Assembly: GCA_963715985.1 (NCBI GenBank)
Contig: CAVQSP010000017.1
Location: 1 to 64,000, forward strand
Direction: 5' to 3'
DNA from: an uncultured Thermoleophilia bacterium
GTDB taxonomy: Bacteria > Actinomycetota > Thermoleophilia > UBA2241
Length of the DNA stretch: 64,000 nt
Made by a program: the position numbers and the translations under genes. This document shows positions 1,920-58,335 of the stretch, in pieces. The notes below the pieces were generated by a model, which was not told the origin of the DNA, made no database searches, and was given only the letters and a program-made list of their open reading frames with translations. The stretch's first letter is position 1. Every line of letters begins with the position of its first letter.

Positions 1920-3537
1920 TGTCGTTCGGCCCCCGCGCTGAAGGGCCGCCGCTAGTGGCCCTCCGGTCGTGCCACCTGCACCGCGTGCTCGTGCTGGCCG
2001 GCGCTCTGCTCGCCGCCTCGGCGGTCCTTGCCCCGGGCGCGCCGGCCGCTGCTGCCCGCACGCTTCCGGGGCCGCCGGCGCTGCTGGCGCTACAGGACGC
2101 CGAGCTCAGCGACGGCCAGCCGGCCCCCTACGAGGACTTCGGATGCGCGGTGGCGCTCGACGGCGACACCGCGCTCGTCGGCGCCGGCTACAAGACGATC
2201 GGCGCCCAGGCCTATGCCGGCGCCGTCTTCGTGTACGTCCGTTCAGGCACGGGCTGGTCGCTGCAGGCGGCCCTGATGGATCCGGGGGCCCTGGCCGGCG
2301 ACGGGTTCGGCGGCGCGGTCGCCCTCGACGGCGACACGGCTCTCATCGGCGTCGACAACAGGACGGTGGACGGGCAGGGCCACGCCGGCGCCGCATATGT
2401 GTACGTCCGCTCCGGCGGGATCTGGTCGCTGCAGGCGGAGCTGACCGCTGCTGCGCCTGCCGCAAACGATTGGTTCGGCTCGTCGATCGCCCTCGACGGC
2501 GACACCGCGCTCGTCGGCGCCGGGGGCAGGACGGTCGGCGGCCAGCACTACGCCAGCACCGCCTTCGTGTTCGCTCGTTCGGGCACGGGCTGGTCGCTGC
2601 AGGCGGAGCTGACCGCCGCCGGCGGGGCGGCCGGTGACGGGTTCGGCCACGCGGTAGCGCTGTCCGGGGAGACGGCACTTGTGGGCGCCGAGAACAGGAG
2701 CGTGGGCGGCGCCTCCGGCGCCGGCGCCGCGTCCGTGTTCGCCCGTTCGGGCGCCGGCTGGTGGCAGCAGGCCGAGCTCACCGCCCCCGATGCGGCGGCC
2801 CGCGCCGGGTTCGGCTCCTCGCTCGATCTCTCCGGCGACACGGCCCTGATCGGCGCCGGCGGCGCGCCGGCCGGCGGGCGGCTCAACGCCTGCGGCCTAC
2901 GTCTACGCGCGGAGCGGCACCACCTGGGCGCAGCAGGCCGAGCTCACGGACCCCGACGGGGCGGCCGGCGACTGGTTCGGCTCCTCGGTGGCGCTCTCCG
3001 GCGACAGGGCGCTGTCGGCGCCTGGGGCGCGACCGTCGGGGGCAAGAGCGAGGCCGGCGCCGCCTACGTCTTCGGGCGCGGCGGCACCGGCTGGATGCAG
3101 CTTGCCAGAGCCACAGCCTCGGACGCGGCCTACGGCGACAACCTGGGCACGTCACTGGACCTCGCCGGCGACACGGCGCTGGTGGGCGCTCCCGGTAAGA
3201 GGTCGGCGGGCAGCCTCTTGCCGGCGCCGCCTATGTGTTCAGTCTCGTCCCCGCTCCCTCGGTGAGCCTCACGGCGTTCCCGACCGCGACGAAGCGGGGC
3301 CGCCCTGTGACGTTGAGCGGTGTGGTCCGCAACGCGGTCGCCGACTCCCCGTCGTCGCCATCCGGCGCAGGGTAGGGGAGAGGCTGGTTCTGCTCAAGCA
3401 GCTGAGGCTTTCGAGCAGCGGCTCCTTCGCTTGGACCATGCCGGTCCCGAAGGCCGGCAAGCAGGTCATGGTCGCGACGTACTCGGCCGGAGGCGTGAGC
3501 TCCAGAGCGCGCCGGTGCCGTCATCGCGCGCAAGTAG
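1919..3537 (+). CDS. FG-GAP repeat (beta-propeller) surface protein, frameshifted; end approximate
   Basis: ATG overlaps upstream TAA; signal peptide; about 7 repeats of FGxxVALDGDTALVGA...GAAYVY/F...W.LQAEL. Confidence 0.8.
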
Positions 3538-4237: not shown

Positions 4238-4452
4238 CCCGGCTCGACACGCTGCCCGCAGGAGGGGTCCTGCGTCGCGGATGCGGTCTCTTCGGAGCGT
4301 GCTGCCCTGAATCCCGCGTCGATCTGCGTCCCCACGGCTTCGCCCCTGCCCGCCACCATGCCCATCTGCAGCCCCTCCGCAACCCGGATCTCCGTGACTC
4401 GAAAGGGCCGGCGGGGCTTTCCGGTCTTCCACGCTCTCCTAATGCCCTTCGT

Positions 4453-4528
4453 GGGCCGCCGGCTCAGTTGGGAGAGCGTCGCCGGTGCACGGCGGAGGTC
4501 AGGGGCTCGAATCCGCTGCGGTCCACCA
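4453..4528 (+). tRNA. tRNA-Ala(TGC), full length but degenerate (possible pseudo-tRNA)
   Basis: 76-nt cloverleaf: acceptor GGGCCGC/GCGGTCC with G3:U70 Ala determinant, D arm GCTC-AGTTGGGA-GAGC, anticodon TGC, encoded CCA; non-canonical C8, G33, C54 and a G:G mismatch in the T stem. Confidence 0.85.
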
Positions 4529-32246: not shown

Positions 32247-32362
32247 TAAGTCCAAGCGGAGTGATTCCGATGGAGGCGTGACCGAGCCTCTCAGAGAAGA
32301 CCTCTAGGTGCACGCCGGTACACACCAGCATCGTGGCATGGTCGTGGCACAGGTCACGGGCG
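32245..32362 (-). pseudogene. Tyrosine recombinase/integrase relic (catalytic box II)
   Basis: RDLCHDHATMLVCTGVHLEVFSERLGHASIGIT, a decayed HDLRHTHAT...GVHPKVVSERLGHASIxITLDxY motif. Confidence 0.75.
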
Positions 32363-32386
32363 ACGCTCAGAGTGAGTCCGGCTCGT

Positions 32387-32406
32387 CGGCAAACGCCCGG
32401 CAAACG
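32387..32406. repeat. 11-bp-period direct repeat CGGCAAACG-CC-CGGCAAACG (candidate integrase arm site)
   Basis: Lies between the integrase relic and tRNA fragment C. Confidence 0.45.
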
Positions 32407-32524
32407 AACGCAACGCCACTCCGCAGTCCTCACCATCACTTGCTGACACTCCGGCCCTGCTCCCCACGCTCAGGATGGCATTCAGCGGCACTTCGCGGTA
32501 CCTCCTAACACATTAGTGGACGCG

Positions 32525-32569
32525 TTTGCACGGCGGAGGTCAGGGGTTCGACTCCCCTGCGGTCCACCA
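32525..32569 (+). repeat. tRNA-Ala 3' half from anticodon loop to CCA (att-like, copy C)
   Basis: TTTGCACGGCGGAGGTCAGGGGTTCGACTCCCCTGCGGTCCACCA; no 5' half upstream. Confidence 0.9.
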
Positions 32570-32710
32570 CTGATTCTCAAGGAAATCGTCGCCTGTAAGC
32601 CCCCCGCGCGACCCGCGTACCCGCCGTCTGCCACCATTCTGCAACCCAGAACCGTGCGTAGGGTTGGCGTGCTTGGACGTGCGCCTGGATGGCACGCATT
32701 GGGACGCCTT

Positions 32711-32935
32711 GGGACGAAACGGGACTACTCCCCCACCTGGCGGGTATCGCCAAGAGACACGCGACTCCTGACATGAGCGATGCTCAACACGGGAGGCTCT
32801 GGTCCGCCGGCGGCACGTTGCGGCCACCGCAGTCCGGCGGGGAGCCACCGGCAGGCTGGTCCGCTGGCCGGTCTTCGTTCTTGCCGGGACCGGGCCCTAT
32901 GGGGCCGAGGGGCCAGAGGGACAGAAGGGGGTGCC
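32711..32935 (+). repeat. Conserved structured leader of about 225 bp, copy 1
   Basis: Aligns with 35904-36127 (GGGACGAAACGGGACTACTCCCCC...GGGGAGCCAC...GAAGGGGG). Confidence 0.85.
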
Positions 32936-33260
32936 GCTTGGGAGAGCCCATCGCGTCAACCTGATGAGCCGTGTCCCTGCGGCACACCGCTCGTGGCCCG
33001 CCTGCGGTGGCAAGCCGGCTCGTGCTGCCCGCGTCGCCCTCGACGGCCGCTGTCGACGATGCCCAGCCTCCCGGCACCGCGCCCTTGGAGAAGGCCGAAA
33101 GCTGCGGTCTGGCGCCGAGCAGAGCGAGAGAGGACAGCACGACACGCGAGCCGGCGGCGCCCTTGGCCGAGCGTTCCCGATCATCGCGCCATCGCTGCCC
33201 AGGCTTCTGAGAGCCGCTCGCGACGAATCATGTGGGAGCCATGCAGAAGGGGGAGACGAC

Positions 33261-35485
33261 ATGAAGAAGCCAAGCGAGAAGCCGAGCCTGCTGACGGTGC
33301 TGGCATTGGCGCTGGCTGCGGCGCTGCTGGTACTCGCCATCGCGGCGCCGCGGGCGGCCGCGGGTCCGGAACTCCGCGCGGCGCCGCTGAATCCGGCCTT
33401 CCTGCGGTCCCTGGTCAGTCCGCCCGTCGGTGCGCCGTGGAGCGCAGCCGGCGGCCACGGCTTCGGCGAAACGCCCGGCCCGCAGGACATGTCCTACACC
33501 CGCGGGATGCAGGTGTCCGGCGCGAGCGAGCTCGGGACGCCGCCGGCGACCTACGACCTGCGCACGCTGGGCAGGGTCACCACGGTGAAGGACCAGGACC
33601 CGCACGGCACCTGCTGGGCGTTCGCCTCATTGGGCTCGCTTGAGTCCTGCCTCCTGCCCGGCGAGACCTCGGACTTCTCCGAGGACAACATGATCCTCCA
33701 GAGCGGCTTTGACGCCGGTGGTGACCCCTATGAGCACGGCGGCCAGCTCTGGAAGGCCACCGCCTACCTGGTCCGTTGGGGCGGCCCTGTGAACGAGAGC
33801 GAGGACGCCTATGGGGACCGCACTACGCCGCCAGGCCTGACCCCGCGCAAGCATGTGCAGGAGGTCGCCTGGATCCCCCTTCGTGGCTCGGCGCTCGACA
33901 ACGACAATGTCAAGAACGCGATCATGCGGTACGGCGGCGTCCATGTCTCGATGAGCTGGCCCGGCAGCACCGCGGGCGACTCCTCCTACAACCCTGCGAC
34001 GGCGAGCTACTACTACAACGGCAGCTCGGGCATCGACCACTCAGTCCTCATCGTCGGCTGGGACGACAACTACTCGGCCGCCAACTTCGCCACCACGCCG
34101 CCGGGCAACGGTGCCTTCATCGTCAAGAACAGCTGGGGCGCAGGGTGGGGCAGCAACGGCTACTTCTACGCCTCCTACTACGATTCCAGGTTCGGCCGCG
34201 AACAGCTCATGGCCGTGTACAACAGCGCGGAGCCCACCAGCAACTACACCGGCATCTACCAGTACGACCCCCTGGGTGACTGCAGCGAGATAGGGTATTC
34301 GAGCTCCACCGGGTGGTTCGCCAACGTCTTCACCGCCCAGACGACTGCAAGCCTGAGCGCCGTCGGCTTCTACACCCTGTCTCCGGGCACGAGCTATGAG
34401 GTCTACTCCGGCGCCAGCCTCGCGACCAAGACGCTGCGCACGAGCGGCACGCTGGCCTACATGGGCTACCACACCGTGACCCTGCCCTCAGCGGTGGGCA
34501 TCACCGACGGCCAGTCCTTCGTCGTCGCCGTGAAGGTCACGTCGCCCGGAACGACCTATCCGATCGCCTTTGAAGTCCCGATCGCCGGCTACGACTCCAG
34601 TGCCGCCACGGCGCAAGCCGGGCAGAGCTACGTGAGCTCGACCGGCTCGACGCTGGACGGACCTGACGACCCGCCACAGCAATGCCAACGTCTGCCTCAA
34701 GGCGTACACGACCGGGTCGGGCCCGCCCCGACGCCCACGCCCACGCCGACACCCACGCCCACGCCGACACCCACGCCGACCCCACGCCGACGCCCACGCC
34801 CACGCCGACGCCCACGCCGACGCCGGGCAGCGACGACGACATTCCCGGAGTGGCCATCCCATCGTCGCCGTTCACCGGGACCGTCTCCCGGGACGCTGAC
34901 CTGGACGACGTCTACGAACTCACGCTCAACAGCGGACAGACGCTGGAAGCGAGTATCAAAGGGCCCGCCGGCAGTGATCTTCGTCTCTATCTGTACGCGC
35001 CCGGCTCGGCGAGCGTCAAAGACCCAGACACGCCCTACGTGGCGGTGGCCCACGGCGCTTATCCCTGCAGCTTCACGTACAAGGCCACCCAGAGCGGCGC
35101 CTACTACCTCGACGTCTACGACTACGCGGGCGCGGGAGGCTACACGGTGACCTACTCCGTCACCTCGCCCACGCCCGGCGACACTGTCGGTCCCGTGTGT
35201 GCCGCGAAGAACGTCATCGTCAAGCGCGGCAAGACCTGCAAGATCTACTTCAAGGTGCGTGACGCGCTCAGCATGCTGGTGACGACTCATGTCGCCATCA
35301 CCACCGACTCCGGGATCGTCAAGAAGAGCTGGTCGTGGGGCTACGGCGTGAACTCCGTCGACTGGCGGTGGGCCAACTACACCTGCCGACTCGCCAAAGG
35401 CACCTACCACATCGTCGTCACGGGTGAGGACCTCGCCGGCAACAGGGCCAGCGTGGTCGGACGGGCCACGCTGAGGGTGAGGTAG
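33261..35485 (+). CDS. Secreted papain-family (C1) cysteine peptidase with lectin-like domain, Pro-Thr linker and PPC-like domain, frameshifted
   Basis: Signal peptide; KDQDPHGTCWAF (Gln/Cys), IDHSVLIVGWDD (His), IVKNSWG (Asn), IYQYDPLG lectin-like start. Confidence 0.9.
34725..34825 (+). repeat. Tandem repeat encoding a (Pro-Thr)n linker
   Basis: CCGACG/CCCACG units. Confidence 0.85.
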
Positions 35486-35903
35486 GGGACGTGCGCCAAG
35501 GCGGGCGGGGCAGACGCAGGGGTCGCCCGCCCGGGGCGGAGGTGGGGGGTCTTCGAGAGTCGGGTCACCGGCCCTTGGGGAACGGCCCGGGTCGCCCCTG
35601 CCGAGCACATGAGCGAGATTCGTGTGACGCGAGTGCCGCGCACGAAGCCGGTGACTGACGCCCACGGATCCCCCCGAGGGACTCGGAGATGGTTCTCGCC
35701 AGCCACCAGGCCGAGCTCACCCAGGGTAGGGCGAGGGGCGCCGCCGATCACGAGGTGCGCGTCAACACGGGCAGCACGCTGCTGCTCGAGAAGACCGTCC
35801 TCACGAAGCGCTCGTGGAAGAGCAGCGCGGCGCTGCCCACGAACGTCGCTCTCCTGGAGGGTGCGGGCCGGAAACGTCGCCGGCGATGCCGGGGGGTCTC
35901 GTG

Positions 35904-36127
35904 GGGACGAAACGGGACTACTCCCCCGCCTGCCGGGTATCGCCAAGAGATACGAGATTCCTGACATGAGCGGCGCTCAGTACGGGAGGCTCTGATCCGC
36001 CGCCGGCACTTTGCGGCCACCTTCATCCGGCGGGGAGCCACTGGTGAGGCCCGCGGGCGGGCCGGTCTTCGTGCCTTCCAGGACCGACAGCCCGGGGGGC
36101 CAAGGGGCAGCTGAGGAAGGGGGCTGC
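35904..36127 (+). repeat. Conserved structured leader, copy 2, ending in the RBS of the SRPBCC gene
   Basis: Homologous to 32711-32935; ends AGGAAGGGGG just before ATG 36133. Confidence 0.85.
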
Positions 36128-36132
36128 GCGGG

Positions 36133-36570
36133 ATGACCAGGATCGAGAGGACCATCGAGATCGAGGCTCCGGTAGAGGAGGTCTTTGATTTCGTCGCTGA
36201 CTGGCGCAACAAATCGAACTGGTACGTAGGAGTGCTCGATTGGAGACCCACGACCGAGCAAACAAGGGGAGTGGGTGCACGGTTTGTCTTCAAGACGAAG
36301 TTCATGGGCATGCACCCCGAGACAGAAATGGAGACCCGCGCCTTCGTCGACAACCAGAACATCGAATACGTGTCGATCAGGGGCACCGACTTGAAGCGCC
36401 AGGTGCTGTTCGTGTCCCTGGACAACCGCACAGAGGTCACGGACATCTCCGAGTACAGGCTCCCGATGTCTCTCCTGGGTGACTTGATAGATGCGCTGTC
36501 GTTCCGGCGCCGGCAGGAGCGGCGCGCCGAGGAGTCCCTGCAGAAACTGAAGAGGCTGACGGAACACTAG
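36133..36570 (+). CDS. SRPBCC/polyketide cyclase-like family protein
   Basis: MTRIERTIEIEAPVEEVFDFVADW...GVGARF; visibly lower GC than its neighbours. Confidence 0.8.
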   Translation: MTRIERTIEIEAPVEEVFDFVADWRNKSNWYVGVLDWRPTTEQTRGVGARFVFKTKFMGMHPETEMETRAFVDNQNIEYVSIRGTDLKRQVLFVSLDNRTEVTDISEYRLPMSLLGDLIDALSFRRRQERRAEESLQKLKRLTEH

Positions 36571-37125
36571 ACTGCTCTTTCGCCCCGCGGTCGCGATACT
36601 CGACGGTTCCGTGTCTCATCGAAAGGGGCCGACGCATCCTTTCGGGCGGCGGCCTGCAGCGTCACCGAGGCGGGCGTCGCCGCCCCGCCCGCCGGTTCTC
36701 TCTGAGCTCCGCGTCGATCCTCGCCGCGGCGACCGAAGCGACGAAGGCGACCGATCCCGCCGACCCCTCCGTTCGTGTGAAGGGACACGGGCGGAAAACC
36801 ACGTGTCGCGGCACCCGGACCGTGTCCCGGGCCTCCCGCATTGGGTCTCGGGCACAGGCGTGACCCCCAAGACAGAATCGACAGACCCGACGATCCGATC
36901 CGATCTGTGGCCTCCCGGCGATGCTGTCACCGACTCGCCAGAGCCGCCGTCAGCTCGTGTCGACCTTCTGCGCGGCTTCCCATGTCTCCGCGCCGCGCCG
37001 CACGCAGCCAGCAGGCGCCCGTTGCGCCGGCCGCTCGTCGGCGTCCAACGGCCACGGCGAAGAAACGCCCCCCTCGCTCAGTCTGTAGTGGCGGAGAGGT
37101 ATCTCCAACGACACGGGGAGGGGAC

Positions 37126-37989
37126 ATGGATGCCACGCAGTCCACCGAGCGGCGTTCCGCCGCAGGCACCTGGACGATCGCGCTCGTCGTCCTGCTTCTG
37201 CTGTGCGCGAGCGCGCTCGTGACCGCCTGCGGCGGCTCCGGCGGACAGGCAATGGGTTCGGCGCCTCCGGCAGCTTCGCCGAGCACGGCCCAGTGGGACT
37301 ACGTCGTGCTGGGGGACTCCGCCTTCGCCGCGCCGGACGGCTCGACGACGGTGGCGCACGCCCAAGCGCGGCTGATCAAGCGCGACCTCGGCGTGGACAC
37401 GAAGGTCTACTGGGCCTACTACCCGGGCACGACCAGCGCGCGCATTGCTGACGAGCTGCGCTACGACAAGCGGCTGCGCGAGGCGATCCGCACGGCCGAG
37501 GTGGTGCTCTTCGACGTGCCCGTCGGCGAGCTGAAGCAGACCGTCCCCTTCGACATGACGGCGTACCAGCCCCTCCCCGGAAGCCCGGAGAGGTACCGCA
37601 AGGGCATGGCGCGGATGCTGGTGGACTACCGCAGGGACGCAAGGGCGATCGTCAACGCGATCGTCTCCCTGCGCAGCCCCGACGAGGCGAGCATCCGGGC
37701 GATCGACCTCTGGCAGCTGGGCTACCCGGGGTTTCGCAAGATGGGCCTTGGCGCCGTCATGCGCACGGCCTGGCTCCGCATGAACAGGGCCGTCGACGAG
37801 GCGTGCGCGGCGCAGGGCGTGACGGTGGTCGACGCCTATGCGGCGTTCATGGGGCCTGACGGCAGGACGGACCCGGTCGCCGCCGGCAACATCCTGCCCG
37901 ACCAGATGCACCTGACGGACAAGGGCATGGCCACGCTCGCGGAGCTGCTCAACGAAGCAGGCTACGCGGAGATCGCCCCGACGCCGTAG
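37126..37989 (+). CDS. SGNH/GDSL hydrolase lipoprotein
   Basis: Lipobox VTAC; YVVLGDS block I; PDQMHLTDKG (DxxH). Confidence 0.8.
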   Translation: MDATQSTERRSAAGTWTIALVVLLLLCASALVTACGGSGGQAMGSAPPAASPSTAQWDYVVLGDSAFAAPDGSTTVAHAQARLIKRDLGVDTKVYWAYYPGTTSARIADELRYDKRLREAIRTAEVVLFDVPVGELKQTVPFDMTAYQPLPGSPERYRKGMARMLVDYRRDARAIVNAIVSLRSPDEASIRAIDLWQLGYPGFRKMGLGAVMRTAWLRMNRAVDEACAAQGVTVVDAYAAFMGPDGRTDPVAAGNILPDQMHLTDKGMATLAELLNEAGYAEIAPTP

Positions 37990-38031
37990 GCCAAGGGACG
38001 CCTCCTGGAAGGCCTGCCATACCTCAAACCG

Positions 38032-38073
38032 GCACGGCGGATGTCGGCGGTTCGAACCCCATGCGGTCCACCA
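38032..38073 (+). repeat. tRNA-Ala 3' half, diverged (copy D), followed by sequence homologous to that after copy C
   Basis: GCACGGCGGATGTCGGCGGTTCGAACCCCATGCGGTCCACCA then CTGATTCTCA...AAGCCCCC...CCATTCTGCAACCCAGA. Confidence 0.8.
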
Positions 38074-38299
38074 CTGATTCTCAGGGTGATCGTCACCTGC
38101 AAGCCCCCGCGAGACCCCCGAGCCGGCCGTCTGCAGCCATTCTGCAACCCAGATCCGTGCGCCTGGGTGGGAGTAGCTGGCGCTCGCTGCGGCCAAACGG
38201 GACTACTCTGGCGCCCGCGGGGAACCCCATTCGAAGTACGCGACTCCTCAGGTGGTCGTCCATCCCAGGGGTCACGGGCCACGGAGCTGGGGGTGGGTC

Positions 38300-38941
38300 A
38301 TGGCGAGCCTCACGAAGGCCAGCCGAGAGGTCGCAGCTGTCGTCGCCCTGGCACTGAGCCTGGTGCTCTCTGGCCGCCTGCGGTGACTCGGGCAGCCCGA
38401 CCCCGACCCGCCCCTCGACCTTGCCGACGCGGAGCACCCCCGTCCCGGCCTATTCGTTCGACCCTGGGTCCGGCACCACCGCGGGCCTTCAGTAAGAGCA
38501 CGGACGGCCTGGAGTTCGTGCCCTGGGTCGACATGGAGGTCAGTGCGCTTGGCTACTGCGACGCCGGTGGGGACGGGCTCCTGAACTCGCACACGGTCGG
38601 CATCTTCGACACCGACACCAAGGAGCTCGTCACGCCCACCGTCGTCGTCGACAGCGAGAGCGTTCTGGACGGCTCCTACCGCTACGAGCCCATCACGCCG
38701 GTGGTCTTGAAGGAGGGCAGGTCCTACATGGTGGCCGGCGACTCTGAGCCACCCTTCGACCCTGTGGCTTTCGACCCTGTGGCGGGGGGCGGGAGCCGCA
38801 ACTGGGCGCCCGAGATGCGGTTCGTCGGGCACAGCGAGAGCTATGGCGACTTCGAGTTCCCAGGGTACGCGGAACCGGTACTTGTGGATGGCCCCCAACT
38901 TCAAGTTCATGCCGGTCCCGGCCGCCTCGCCCGCGCAGTAG
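38300..38941 (+). CDS. Exported DUF4082-like protein, frameshifted
   Basis: Signal-like N-terminus; GLEFVP...VSALGY.D.GGDGLLNSHTVGIFD...YRYEPITPVVLKEGRSY...GPNFKF. Confidence 0.6.
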
Positions 38942-38989
38942 GCAGTCGCTGGCCGACCGGCGCATCCGCGCTCTTGTCCCGACGGTGCC

Positions 38990-39030
38990 GCACGGCGGAG
39001 GTCAGGGGTTCTACCACCTGCGGTCCACCA
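38990..39030 (+). repeat. tRNA-Ala 3' half, diverged (copy E)
   Basis: GCACGGCGGAGGTCAGGGGTTCTACCACCTGCGGTCCACCA. Confidence 0.85.
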
Positions 39031-39336
39031 GCACTTGCAGGTACATCGCGTCCTGTGGGCCTGCCGGGAGGCCCCCGCAACGGCCCTTTGCGACCATCCT
39101 GCATCCCAACGCCGGTCGGGAAGGCGCCTTCGTCTCGGCGATGTCCTATCCGTCGGCGTGCCCGGAGATCGGCAGAGTGATGGTAAGAACGTCATCGCGA
39201 TGGTGCGTTGCTCAGGCCACGCCGGCCTCTCCAGCCGATGCCACTTCGACGGCCGTCCCGTTGCCATTCCAACCGCGCATTCACTTCCTCCTGTAGGGTA
39301 GCTGGGTAGCGGGCTCCGAGTGAGATCGGACTGCGT

Positions 39337-57414: not shown

Positions 57415-57699
57415 CGGCTCGTTCAGCTGCCGACCCCTGGGCTCGCCCGCCTCGCCGGCACCACGCACGGCGTCACGTGGCAGCAGCCGCTGCTCTGAGT
57501 TCGGCCCGCTTGGCGGCGTCATCCGCGCAGCCGGCCGACCGGGCGTCCTCGGTCGGGCGGCCGCCCCAACGCTCGGGACCCCCCCGGTCCAAGCCTGGAC
57601 CGTTGTCACACGGGACTCCTGAGACGCGCAGGCGGGCACACCGGCGGCGAGGCGATGACGAACGTCGGCAACCGCTCACGCTGAGGGTCGTGGATGGGA

Positions 57700-57996: not shown

Positions 57997-58335
57997 ATGG
58001 CGCTTCTCAAGGCAGCCGTTGAGGCGGACGTCCCGATCCGGTTCGCCGACGAGGTGTGGAGCGAGTTCATCCGGCGCTCCACGTACGGAAGCTACGCCAA
58101 GGGTTTTGCCGATGTGGCCGCGGCGCTGTCCGAGATCGACGCCGAGGACGGGACAGTGACGTTCGAGACCGCGACTGACCGGCTGGTCAGGGTCTCGGTC
58201 GAGCTCGAGTACGTACCCCGCGCCGGCGGTGGCGCCGCCGCGGAGATCGCCCGGGCACAGACGGTCCTGGAGCACGACCTCGAGAACTACCGCGTCTTCC
58301 TCATGCGGCGATGGGACCAGGAGACCTCTCGGTAG
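57997..58335 (+). CDS. Small hypothetical protein (cyclase/SRPBCC-like)
   Basis: GGAGAGG RBS; AVEADVPIRFADEVWSEF...RVSVELEY...LEHDLENYRVF. Confidence 0.6.
   Translation: MALLKAAVEADVPIRFADEVWSEFIRRSTYGSYAKGFADVAAALSEIDAEDGTVTFETATDRLVRVSVELEYVPRAGGGAAAEIARAQTVLEHDLENYRVFLMRRWDQETSR

Follow-up and report, generated by a model that had tools for sequence, protein, structure and literature searches.

Repeated leaders with a predicted c-di-GMP-II-GAG (RF03169) core ahead of different genes in a Thermoleophilia genome

Introduction

Riboswitches of the canonical c-di-GMP-II class (Rfam family RF01786; c-di-GMP, cyclic diguanosine monophosphate) are said, after work by Lee and colleagues in 2010, to stand as ON switches in front of genes for surface proteins and pilins in Clostridia. 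The c-di-GMP-II-GAG family (RF03169), which belongs to the same clan (CL00127), was reportedly proposed as a variant class by Weinberg and colleagues in PNAS in 2017, and the GAG letters of the binding site that give this family its name differ from those of the canonical class. The present work deals with a leader unit of about 225 nucleotides (nt), which occurs repeatedly ahead of different genes in a 64,000-nt stretch of DNA (the window) from an uncultured Thermoleophilia bacterium. The window consists of the first 64 kb of contig C17 (CAVQSP010000017.1) of assembly GCA_963715985.1 (4.35 Mb, 88.8% complete, 7.3% contaminated); C4, C5, C8, C10, C11 and C13 likewise denote contigs of this genome. 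A preliminary description, made from the letters of the window, had pointed to two long copies of the unit and a partial third one, and had viewed the unit either as a portable promoter/leader or as an undescribed cis-regulatory RNA. Our results support this description in part, its observation being confirmed and its interpretation half right. By its model matches, the structured core of the unit is assigned to the known family RF03169, of which the copies are new members and not a new class, and the unit as a whole is very probably a complete expression leader, in which an RF03169 aptamer would act by ligand-dependent antitermination, from a family that is abundant in the genus.

The canonical class is covered in a review on tandem riboswitches (PMC9481103). 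A literature search found no ligand test of the c-di-GMP-II-GAG variant, whose name stands in one paper among listed models, and the main text of the 2017 paper in Nucleic Acids Research (NAR) does not discuss it. The presumed ligand is c-di-GMP or a closely related molecule.

Results

The two long copies of the leader are readily aligned with each other. The direct-repeat family D4 of the repeat finder pairs 32701-32851 (copy 1) with 35894-36044 (copy 2) at 86% over 151 nt, and in a blastn search of the whole genome copy 1 as query recovers copy 2 with E 6.8e-52, because of which value their similarity is far above chance; the two long, highly similar copies claimed earlier are thus borne out. 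The tails of the two copies are more weakly alike (32863-32916 and 36057-36110, 70%, family D19), and both copies do end in GAAGGGGG, as had been stated, at 32924-32931 and 36116-36123. In copy 2 this sequence lies 9 nt before the ATG at 36133 and is, in agreement with the earlier view, the ribosome-binding site (RBS) of a lower-GC SRPBCC gene (58.2% GC versus 68.9% for the window). The partial third copy was also recovered, by a 72% repeat between 32678-32730 and 38156-38208 (family D20) and by a three-way alignment, and it spans 38156-38248. The blastn search further revealed a truncated leader copy at C17:94809. Another of its matches, C13:112225-112292, was rejected as a leader; by eye it is an apparent coding region with a helix-turn-helix.

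The identity of the core is indicated by covariance-model scans. When 32300-38500 was scanned by E-value, RF03169 matched copy 2 at 35976-36060 with 40.0 bits, which is the gathering score (E 2.7e-5), and copy 1 at 32783-32868 with 23.2 bits, below the cut-off of 40, the model being matched over its full length (positions 1-86). Over the whole genome RF03169 has 8 matches at E<=10, and with 62.4, 58.9 and 40.0 bits three of these pass the cut-off. There the canonical model RF01786 gives lower values (37.3, 35.2 and 22.7 bits, the last for copy 2); its cut-off of 53.5 is reached nowhere in the genome, where its best score is 37.3, and it does not list copy 1 at E<=10. The family is also frequent among the relatives of this bacterium, RF03169 being found above the cut-off in 25 of the 61 related genomes searched and at E<=0.001 in 21 of 36 genomes of the same genus, with a maximum of 9 matches in one genome. 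The principal predicted aptamers of the genome are the following.

C11:136856-136945: strong aptamer, RF03169 62.4 bits
C11:8727-8816: strong aptamer, RF03169 58.9 bits
35976..36060, + strand: copy 2 aptamer, RF03169 40.0 bits
C10:298257: weaker aptamer, RF03169 36 bits
C10:295399: weaker aptamer, RF03169 33.6 bits
32783..32868, + strand: copy 1 aptamer, degenerate c-di-GMP-II-GAG, 23.2 bits

The window family shares with RF03169 the stems P2 and P3, the pseudoknot between a loop and the 3' side, the conserved blocks GGGAGGC..GA..GGGGAGCC..GGUGAGACCG, and the occurrence of many copies per genome ahead of genes for exported proteins. The stem GGCTCT..CCGCCG...CGGCGG..GGAGCC, which had been singled out from the letters of the window, can now be identified as P2 plus P3 of this aptamer. 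However, the family also differs from the Rfam model: the outer part of the P1 stem is unformed in the genus, where about 4 bp (CGGG/CCCG) pair and the outer bases sit in a separate 5' hairpin; a lineage-specific 5' stem and a promoter block are added and travel with the aptamer; and one pseudoknot pair is A-U where the Rfam consensus has G-C. With the canonical class the family has in common the clan, the overall fold, the location in 5' leaders of surface- or exported-protein genes and, as the likely logic, the competition of a ligand-stabilised pseudoknot with a terminator, whereas the scores in this genome lie below the 53.5-bit cut-off of RF01786. Thus the earlier proposal of an undescribed cis-regulatory RNA holds for the cis-regulatory RNA, but not for its being undescribed.

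A collection of 74 leaders was assembled, 6 of them from this genome and 68 from its relatives; 73 were scored for motifs (one was too short), and 49 that possess the 5' extension described below form alignment A1, the 25 excluded ones being leaders with a palindrome-type upstream block and divergent outgroup copies. Read side by side, these leaders are similar well beyond the 86-nt aptamer, and their order from 5' to 3' is a two-block motif, a 5' stem/hairpin, the aptamer with its pseudoknot, a terminator-like hairpin, a purine-rich RBS region and the gene. The two-block motif keeps a fixed spacing among the family members, and we infer it to be a promoter. Patterns flagged by script distinguish at least four kinds of upstream block among the 74 leaders. 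The first, AAACGCTTGAC-N17-G(C/T)GTAGAC, is near to a sigma-70-type -35/-10 pair; the second, AACGGGACTA-N14-GGGTA, is that of the window and was flagged in 13 leaders; the third, GTAACAC...GGGTAGCG, was flagged in 8; and the fourth, a TCACC..GGTGA palindrome, in 15. Because around AACG and GAC the first kind can be aligned with the second at every base (by eye), the block of the window looks like a variant of the first kind with a poorer -35, and in sister leaders TTGAC-N17-TAGAC stands in register with GGGACT-N18-TATCGC of the window. A sigma-70 consensus scan of 32400-38400 gave zero sites.

The strict form of the window motif occurs 6 times in the genome, 5 times at leaders (copies 1 and 2, C10:295334, C11:8662 and C17:94827) and once at C5:19804; with a looser form, which includes copy 3, the total is 7. 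A genome-wide sigma regulon defined by this motif was considered and rejected, as the motif is confined to leader copies save for C5:19804. Transcription would be expected to start near the A of AGACACGCGACUCC. The stem GGGA-CTAC-TCCC, described earlier as retained, does lie inside the promoter-like block, but by eye it is absent from several members (e.g. C11a, L066 and L044). In a second class of RF03169 leaders (L083, L085, L089, L090, L092 and others) an (A/G)ATCACCGGATTCCGGTGAAGACA palindrome replaces the ACGAGACUCCUGA extension; this palindrome could be an operator or an alternative 5' hairpin.

The positions of these elements in the two long copies are as follows.

32718..32746, + strand: copy 1 promoter-like two-block motif, AACGGGACTA-N14-GGGTA (fixed spacing, motif search)
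32759..32790, + strand: copy 1 5' extension, ACGCGACUCCUGA, hairpin GAGC/GCUC (32775-32785) and start of CGGGAG (motif, A1 pairing, minimum free energy (MFE) fold)
32853..32884, + strand: copy 1 terminator-like hairpin and T-rich tail TCGTTCTTGC, overlapping the 3' part of the aptamer (pattern-scan site 32853-32874)
32924..32931, + strand: copy 1 end, GAAGGGGG, with the cargo start 330 nt further on
35911..35939, + strand: copy 2 promoter-like two-block motif (motif search)
35952..35983, + strand: copy 2 5' extension, ACGAGAUUCCUGA and hairpin (motif, MFE fold)
36048..36075, + strand: copy 2 hairpin followed by GGUCUUCGUGCC, a weaker terminator-like element (fold)
36116..36123, + strand: copy 2 RBS, GAAGGGGG, 9 nt before the ATG at 36133

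The predicted fold is compatible with the aligned leaders. In A1, P1, P2, P3 and the pseudoknot show standard pairs in 95.4% of cells, a value that falls to 20-47% once the partners are shifted by 1-3 columns; by helix, the values are 94.9% for the inner 4 bp of P1, 95.2% for P2, 93.9% for P3, and 97.3% and 97.9% for the two pseudoknot helices, while a joint count of paired cells over the 5' stem, P3 and the terminator hairpin gives 92.5%. The pseudoknot joins CGGCCACC in the P3 loop with GGUGAGACCG (GGUG-AGA-CCG). Directly past GGUGAG, ACCGGCC pairs with GGCCGGU to give a hairpin of 7-9 bp, followed by CUUCGUGCUUU; in the leader family this is seen as a GC-rich hairpin, GACCGGCC/GGCCGGUC, and then UUCGUGCUUU. 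Such a hairpin of at least 7 bp, starting in the AGACCGG of the aptamer, is found in 62 of the 73 scored leaders, and in 48 of the 73 the 10 nt behind it also include at least 4 T. The bases of its 5' strand are those of the second pseudoknot half and of P1, whose 3' strand they form. From the terminator to the start codon the sequence is purine-rich, with recurring GGGAGCC and GGGGCC blocks.

The 5' extension begins with a conserved AUACGAGACUCCUGA about 7 nt past the -10-like block (39 of 73 leaders have this motif), after which come a short variable hairpin and then the CGGGAGGC of the aptamer. Pairing of CUCCUG with CGGGAG is possible in 37 of 73 leaders, so that the second stem of the earlier account, described as retained (CTCCTG..hairpin..CGGGAG), is upheld for these but not for the remainder; an inner hairpin of at least 4 bp is present in 33 of 73, and it exists in at least two sequence forms, GAGC-N3-GCUC and GUGCA-N4-UGCAC. 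Within A1 the pairing of this CUCCUG/CGGGAG stem is present in 93.2% of cells, and only 2 of its pairs vary on both sides. As CGGGAG supplies the 5' strands of both P1 and P2, the 5' stem and the aptamer are mutually exclusive. The MFE folds of nine leaders, computed free of ligand, contain the 5' stem in 5 cases and the terminator hairpin in 5, both occurring together in C11a, C11b and L065; the 5' stem is kept in the folds of copies 1 and 2.

Ligand-dependent antitermination, that is an ON switch, is the simplest reading of this arrangement and the likely mechanism. When ligand is absent, CUCCUG of the 5' extension would pair with CGGGAG, the 5' strand of P1/P2, so that the aptamer would be blocked and the terminator would form, with termination at GGCCGGUCUUCGUG. 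When ligand is bound, the pseudoknot and P1 would hold the GACCGGCCCG segment, the terminator would be blocked and transcription would enter the gene.

The members of the family in the window are not equally well preserved. Copy 1 is a degenerate member in which ligand sensing may have been lost: its deviations affect the otherwise near-invariant A in the GA behind P2 and two bases of the first pseudoknot helix, three of them give G-U wobbles in the terminator, and 2 of 7 pseudoknot pairs are lost. In copy 2 the cmscan alignment shows 4 nt missing in GAGACCGGCCCG, the 3' strand of the pseudoknot and P1, because of which its second pseudoknot helix and P1 are left to compete for one set of bases. 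This copy retains P2, P3 and the first half of the pseudoknot, the second half being lost or shifted, and has a 6-bp hairpin (GGCCCG-CGGG-CGGGCC; fold -14.4 kcal/mol) before GGUCUUCGUG; by these features it is classed as a borderline member with a damaged pseudoknot/P1 3' strand. The form short by 4 nt is probably real, because one 172-nt metagenome contig bridges the place with a single gap. Copy 3 shares with copy 1 the tRNA relic and the module of about 100 nt described below, the AACGGGACTAC block and ACGCGACTCCT, after which, in the three-way alignment, homology ends and no aptamer follows; past TACGCGACTCCT it diverges into a leader of about 50 nt and an open reading frame (ORF) with a lipoprotein-like start. 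A complete leader is carried by the locus C10:295334, which is paralogous to copy 3.

38196..38248, + strand: copy 3, promoter-like block (GGGAA for GGGTA) and TACGCGACTCCT, with no aptamer or terminator (loose motif, alignment)
38300..38940, + strand: ORF after copy 3, lipoprotein-like start, frame broken near 38368 (sequence reading)
57568..57623, + strand: fourth, decayed copy of the promoter and 5' extension, with no aptamer (motif ACGGGACTCCTGA at 57610)

The two long copies precede unrelated genes, viz. a papain-type protease and an SRPBCC protein.

33261..35485, + strand: cargo 1, exported papain-family cysteine protease with lectin-like and PPC domains (PF00112, PF18560, PF04151)
36133..36570, + strand: cargo 2, SRPBCC / Polyketide_cyc2 protein, 58.2% GC (PF10604)

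The protease has a signal peptide, and its reading frame changes in a Pro/Thr linker near 34640-34800. A homologue of the SRPBCC protein at E<=1e-10 was not found in the 53 other genomes of the genus, nor by a search of related loci, which fits a recently acquired gene behind a leader typical of the genus. In the whole collection a first downstream ORF could be called for 70 of the 74 leaders; 52 of these start with a hydrophobic segment by a crude test (at least 9 of 12 residues within the first 50), many of them with a lipobox. A Pfam run covered 23 of the 31 ORFs of at least 60 amino acids with long flanks (five short or doubtful ones and three already examined were excluded), and 11 of the 23 gave hits: PD40 (three), SnoaL-like (two), a PQQ propeller, an alpha/beta hydrolase, a solute-binding protein, Big_13, DUF3592 and an ECF sigma factor. 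The unit is thus a cis-regulatory leader with its own apparent promoter ahead of unrelated cargo genes, as the proposal of a portable promoter/leader had held. The genome has 25 GGDEF and 5 EAL matches, some of which are pieces of one ORF, and therefore a c-di-GMP system is present in it.

Upstream of copies 1 and 3 there are also the tRNA fragments that had been noted earlier; these proved to be 3' fragments, at 32528-32569 and 38032-38073. By comparison with 4452-4528, a nearly whole, degenerate tRNA-like sequence with the anticodon loop GGUGCAC, such relics correspond to the 3' half of tRNA-Ala(TGC) from the anticodon loop, beginning with GCACGGCGG and running to CCACCA. They start in the window at 4486, 6135 (to 6168), 32528, 38032 and 38990 (to 39031), and elsewhere at C17:94726, C10:295170 and C10:301760, with a spacing of 1.0 to 26 kb. 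ARAGORN found zero tRNA genes in the window, and 4452-4528 was rejected as a functional tRNA, since it has no Rfam tRNA hit at E<=10 and ARAGORN likewise reports none.

32528..32569, + strand: relic 'C', tRNA-Ala(TGC) 3' half from anticodon loop to CCA (repeat families D5/D6, blastn copies)
32570..32667, + strand: module of about 100 nt with TCTGCAACC direct repeats, separate from the leader (family D8, alignment)
38032..38175, + strand: relic 'D' (38032-38073) and module (38074-38175) (repeats, blastn, alignment)

The module stands directly after the relics at 32528, 38032, 38990, C10:295170 and C10:301760, and its positions further include 39032-39127, C10:289927-290015, C10:295212-295311, C10:299434-299506 and C8:178874-178991. 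At C10:289850 it stands behind an intact tRNA-Ile(GAT), in genome G077 behind an intact tRNA-Ala(TGC) and in genome G020 behind a tRNA-Glu, and it was found in 13 of 54 genomes of the genus. For comparison, tandem attachment-site (att) arrays are known from actinomycete elements of the pSAM2 type, whose identity segments reach from the anticodon loop to the 3' end, and in streptococci integrase-less, cis-mobilisable elements accrete beside integrative and conjugative elements. The present arrangement resembles att arrays of tRNA-targeting integrative elements in that tRNA 3' halves beginning in the anticodon loop recur as direct repeats, each with an arm-like conserved sequence behind it that contains short direct repeats. 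However, it differs from them in that C17 and C10 carry no integrase, no intact tRNA heads the array of the window and some intervals are only 1 kb; Phage_integrase (PF00589) has zero matches on C17 or C10, and the match closest to a module lies on C8, at a distance of about 4 kb. The relics and modules look like remains of att sites or integrase-less satellites, and the module may be the arm of an integrative element or satellite.

Discussion

Several observations weigh against reading the unit as a working antitermination switch. A scan of the whole window at the default gathering threshold of Rfam lists zero matches, copy 2 included; copy 2 just reaches the cut-off and copy 1 is below it, the aptamer of the latter deviating at 7 of the 56 columns that are at least 90% conserved, where the median over 49 sequences is 1. 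In the collected homologs, on which a covariation check had been suggested, there is little covariation within the genus: in A1 the aptamer has both-side changes at 5 pairs (6 cells), which is slight because the sequences are too alike, and a double change in leader L050 breaks one pair of the 5' stem. The pairing counts indicate compatibility, not proof, the structure having been drawn in part from the same sequences, and it is the Rfam model that provides the proof of the fold. At least 15 of the 74 leaders have the TCACC..GGTGA palindrome without the 5' extension, because of which the extension is seen as an accessory of one lineage, outside the sensing fold. Lastly, the T-rich tail is poor by textbook standards, the terminator-like sites of the pattern scan are not above those in shuffles (2 versus a mean of 1.9), and promoter, transcription start and termination are all things that we infer from sequence.

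Some of these observations would be explained if the two long copies of the window are decaying relics that no longer sense a ligand and still supply a promoter and an RBS, expression being constitutive or terminated by default. This is a serious possibility, although it falls somewhat short of probable. It accords with the low score and many deviations of copy 1, with the 330-nt spacer holding an unrelated 47-nt repeat between that copy and its gene, with the 4 nt lacking from the pseudoknot/P1 3' strand of copy 2 and the non-exported, genus-unique cargo of the latter, and with the persistence of the promoter block without an aptamer at copy 3 and at 57568-57623. However, copy 2 is still at the Rfam cut-off and retains P2, P3, the first pseudoknot half and a hairpin before a T-rich run, the 5' stem is kept in both copies, and, given that the assembly shows indels relative to related contigs, some of the defects may be errors. 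As to the origin of the unit, a decayed coding sequence or an insertion sequence (IS) end, which had been named as the finding that would speak against an RNA leader, is rejected, since an RNA model with a pseudoknot fits the conserved blocks and start codons follow the copies. It is rather unlikely that the upstream part acts at the DNA level, the AACGGGACTAGTCCC-like near-palindromes, and elsewhere TCACCGGATTCCGGTGA, being operators and the 5' stem lying outside the switch. Leader L047 does contain GGGACTAGTCCC as a perfect palindrome, GGGA..TCCC is seen in several copies and GGAA..TTCC in L059, the TCACC-palindrome class is without the 5' extension, and at 38196 and 57568 there is a promoter block but no aptamer; however, the palindrome is lost in C11a, L066 and L044, and CUCCUG complements exactly those aptamer bases which form P1 and P2. 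Further, the inner hairpin varies in sequence and keeps its structure, and therefore an RNA element is favoured over a protein operator.

The different genes behind the leader could also be accounted for if it were part of a mobile cassette, with relic, module, leader and gene moving together as integrase-less units bounded by att sites, but we regard this as improbable. The order relic, module and leader recurs at 32528, 38032, C10:295170 and C17:94726, of the 74 leaders 9 are preceded within 200 nt by a relic or module motif, the relics are spaced 1.0 to 26 kb apart, the module stands, depending on the genome, after an intact tRNA-Ile, tRNA-Ala or tRNA-Glu gene, and modules and leaders alternate on contig G014:C246. 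However, 65 of the 74 leaders are without such a motif in that distance; copy 2 has no relic; C17 and C10 have no Phage_integrase and the ORFs scanned include no recombinase; and neither an empty site nor a circular junction was seen, only weak joints on single contigs. It is more improbable still, to the point of being a long shot, that the tRNA-Ala half-site, the TCTGCAACC module and the leader constitute an integrase-less, att-bounded cassette system in which a recombinase encoded elsewhere would shuffle exported-protein genes from genome to genome and so bring each new gene directly under the control of a second messenger.

Under the preferred reading, that of an antitermination leader with an RF03169 aptamer, the copies described here add unannotated members to a catalogued and apparently uncharacterised riboswitch variant, and knowledge of riboswitch classes is unchanged. 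The recurrence of a module reaching from promoter to RBS before genes for exported proteins, lipoproteins and hydrolases points to a regulon of the cell surface or secretion controlled by a second messenger. The strong copies (62 and 59 bits) would be good substrates for a ligand test, and the degraded pair, the promoter-only copies and the genus-unique cargo make up a small natural series of leader gain, reuse and loss.

Additional observations

The letters GACGAAAC at 32712 and CTGATGAG at 32961 prompted consideration of a hammerhead ribozyme, which was rejected, as the Rfam scan gave zero ribozyme families even at E<=10. The spacer between copy 1 and its gene (32936-33260) contains the hairpin-capable 47-nt repeat at 32965-33011, and this repeat is found elsewhere at C17:263006 and 263057 (in tandem), C11:629713 and C4:41110.

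Wetland-metagenome contigs from all 4 DNA runs have one base fewer than the assembly at 38368 and at 38866. More generally, the contigs of the four runs show indel differences and multi-copy depth over the leaders, and single-contig joints between leader copies are weak; because related contigs differ by indels, the frame breaks in the protease and in the ORF at 38300 may be assembly errors.

The region around copy 3 has a paralogous counterpart: 36805-39000 and C10:293724-296700 present, in the same order, a spacer, a gene, a tRNA relic, the module and a promoter/leader with a lipoprotein gene. The gene in question is an SGNH lipase in the window versus a PD40 protein on C10, and a DDE transposase and IS3 fragments lie near the C10 segment. 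The decayed copy at 57568-57623, which consists of a promoter-like block and ACGGGACTCCTGAGACG, lies about 375 nt upstream of a small ORF starting at 57997. Towards the beginning of the window, 2099-3238 is made up of tandem repeats of about 168 nt (at least 6 units, 66-77% alike) beside a GH123-like gene, and it is probably the coding region of a repeat domain.

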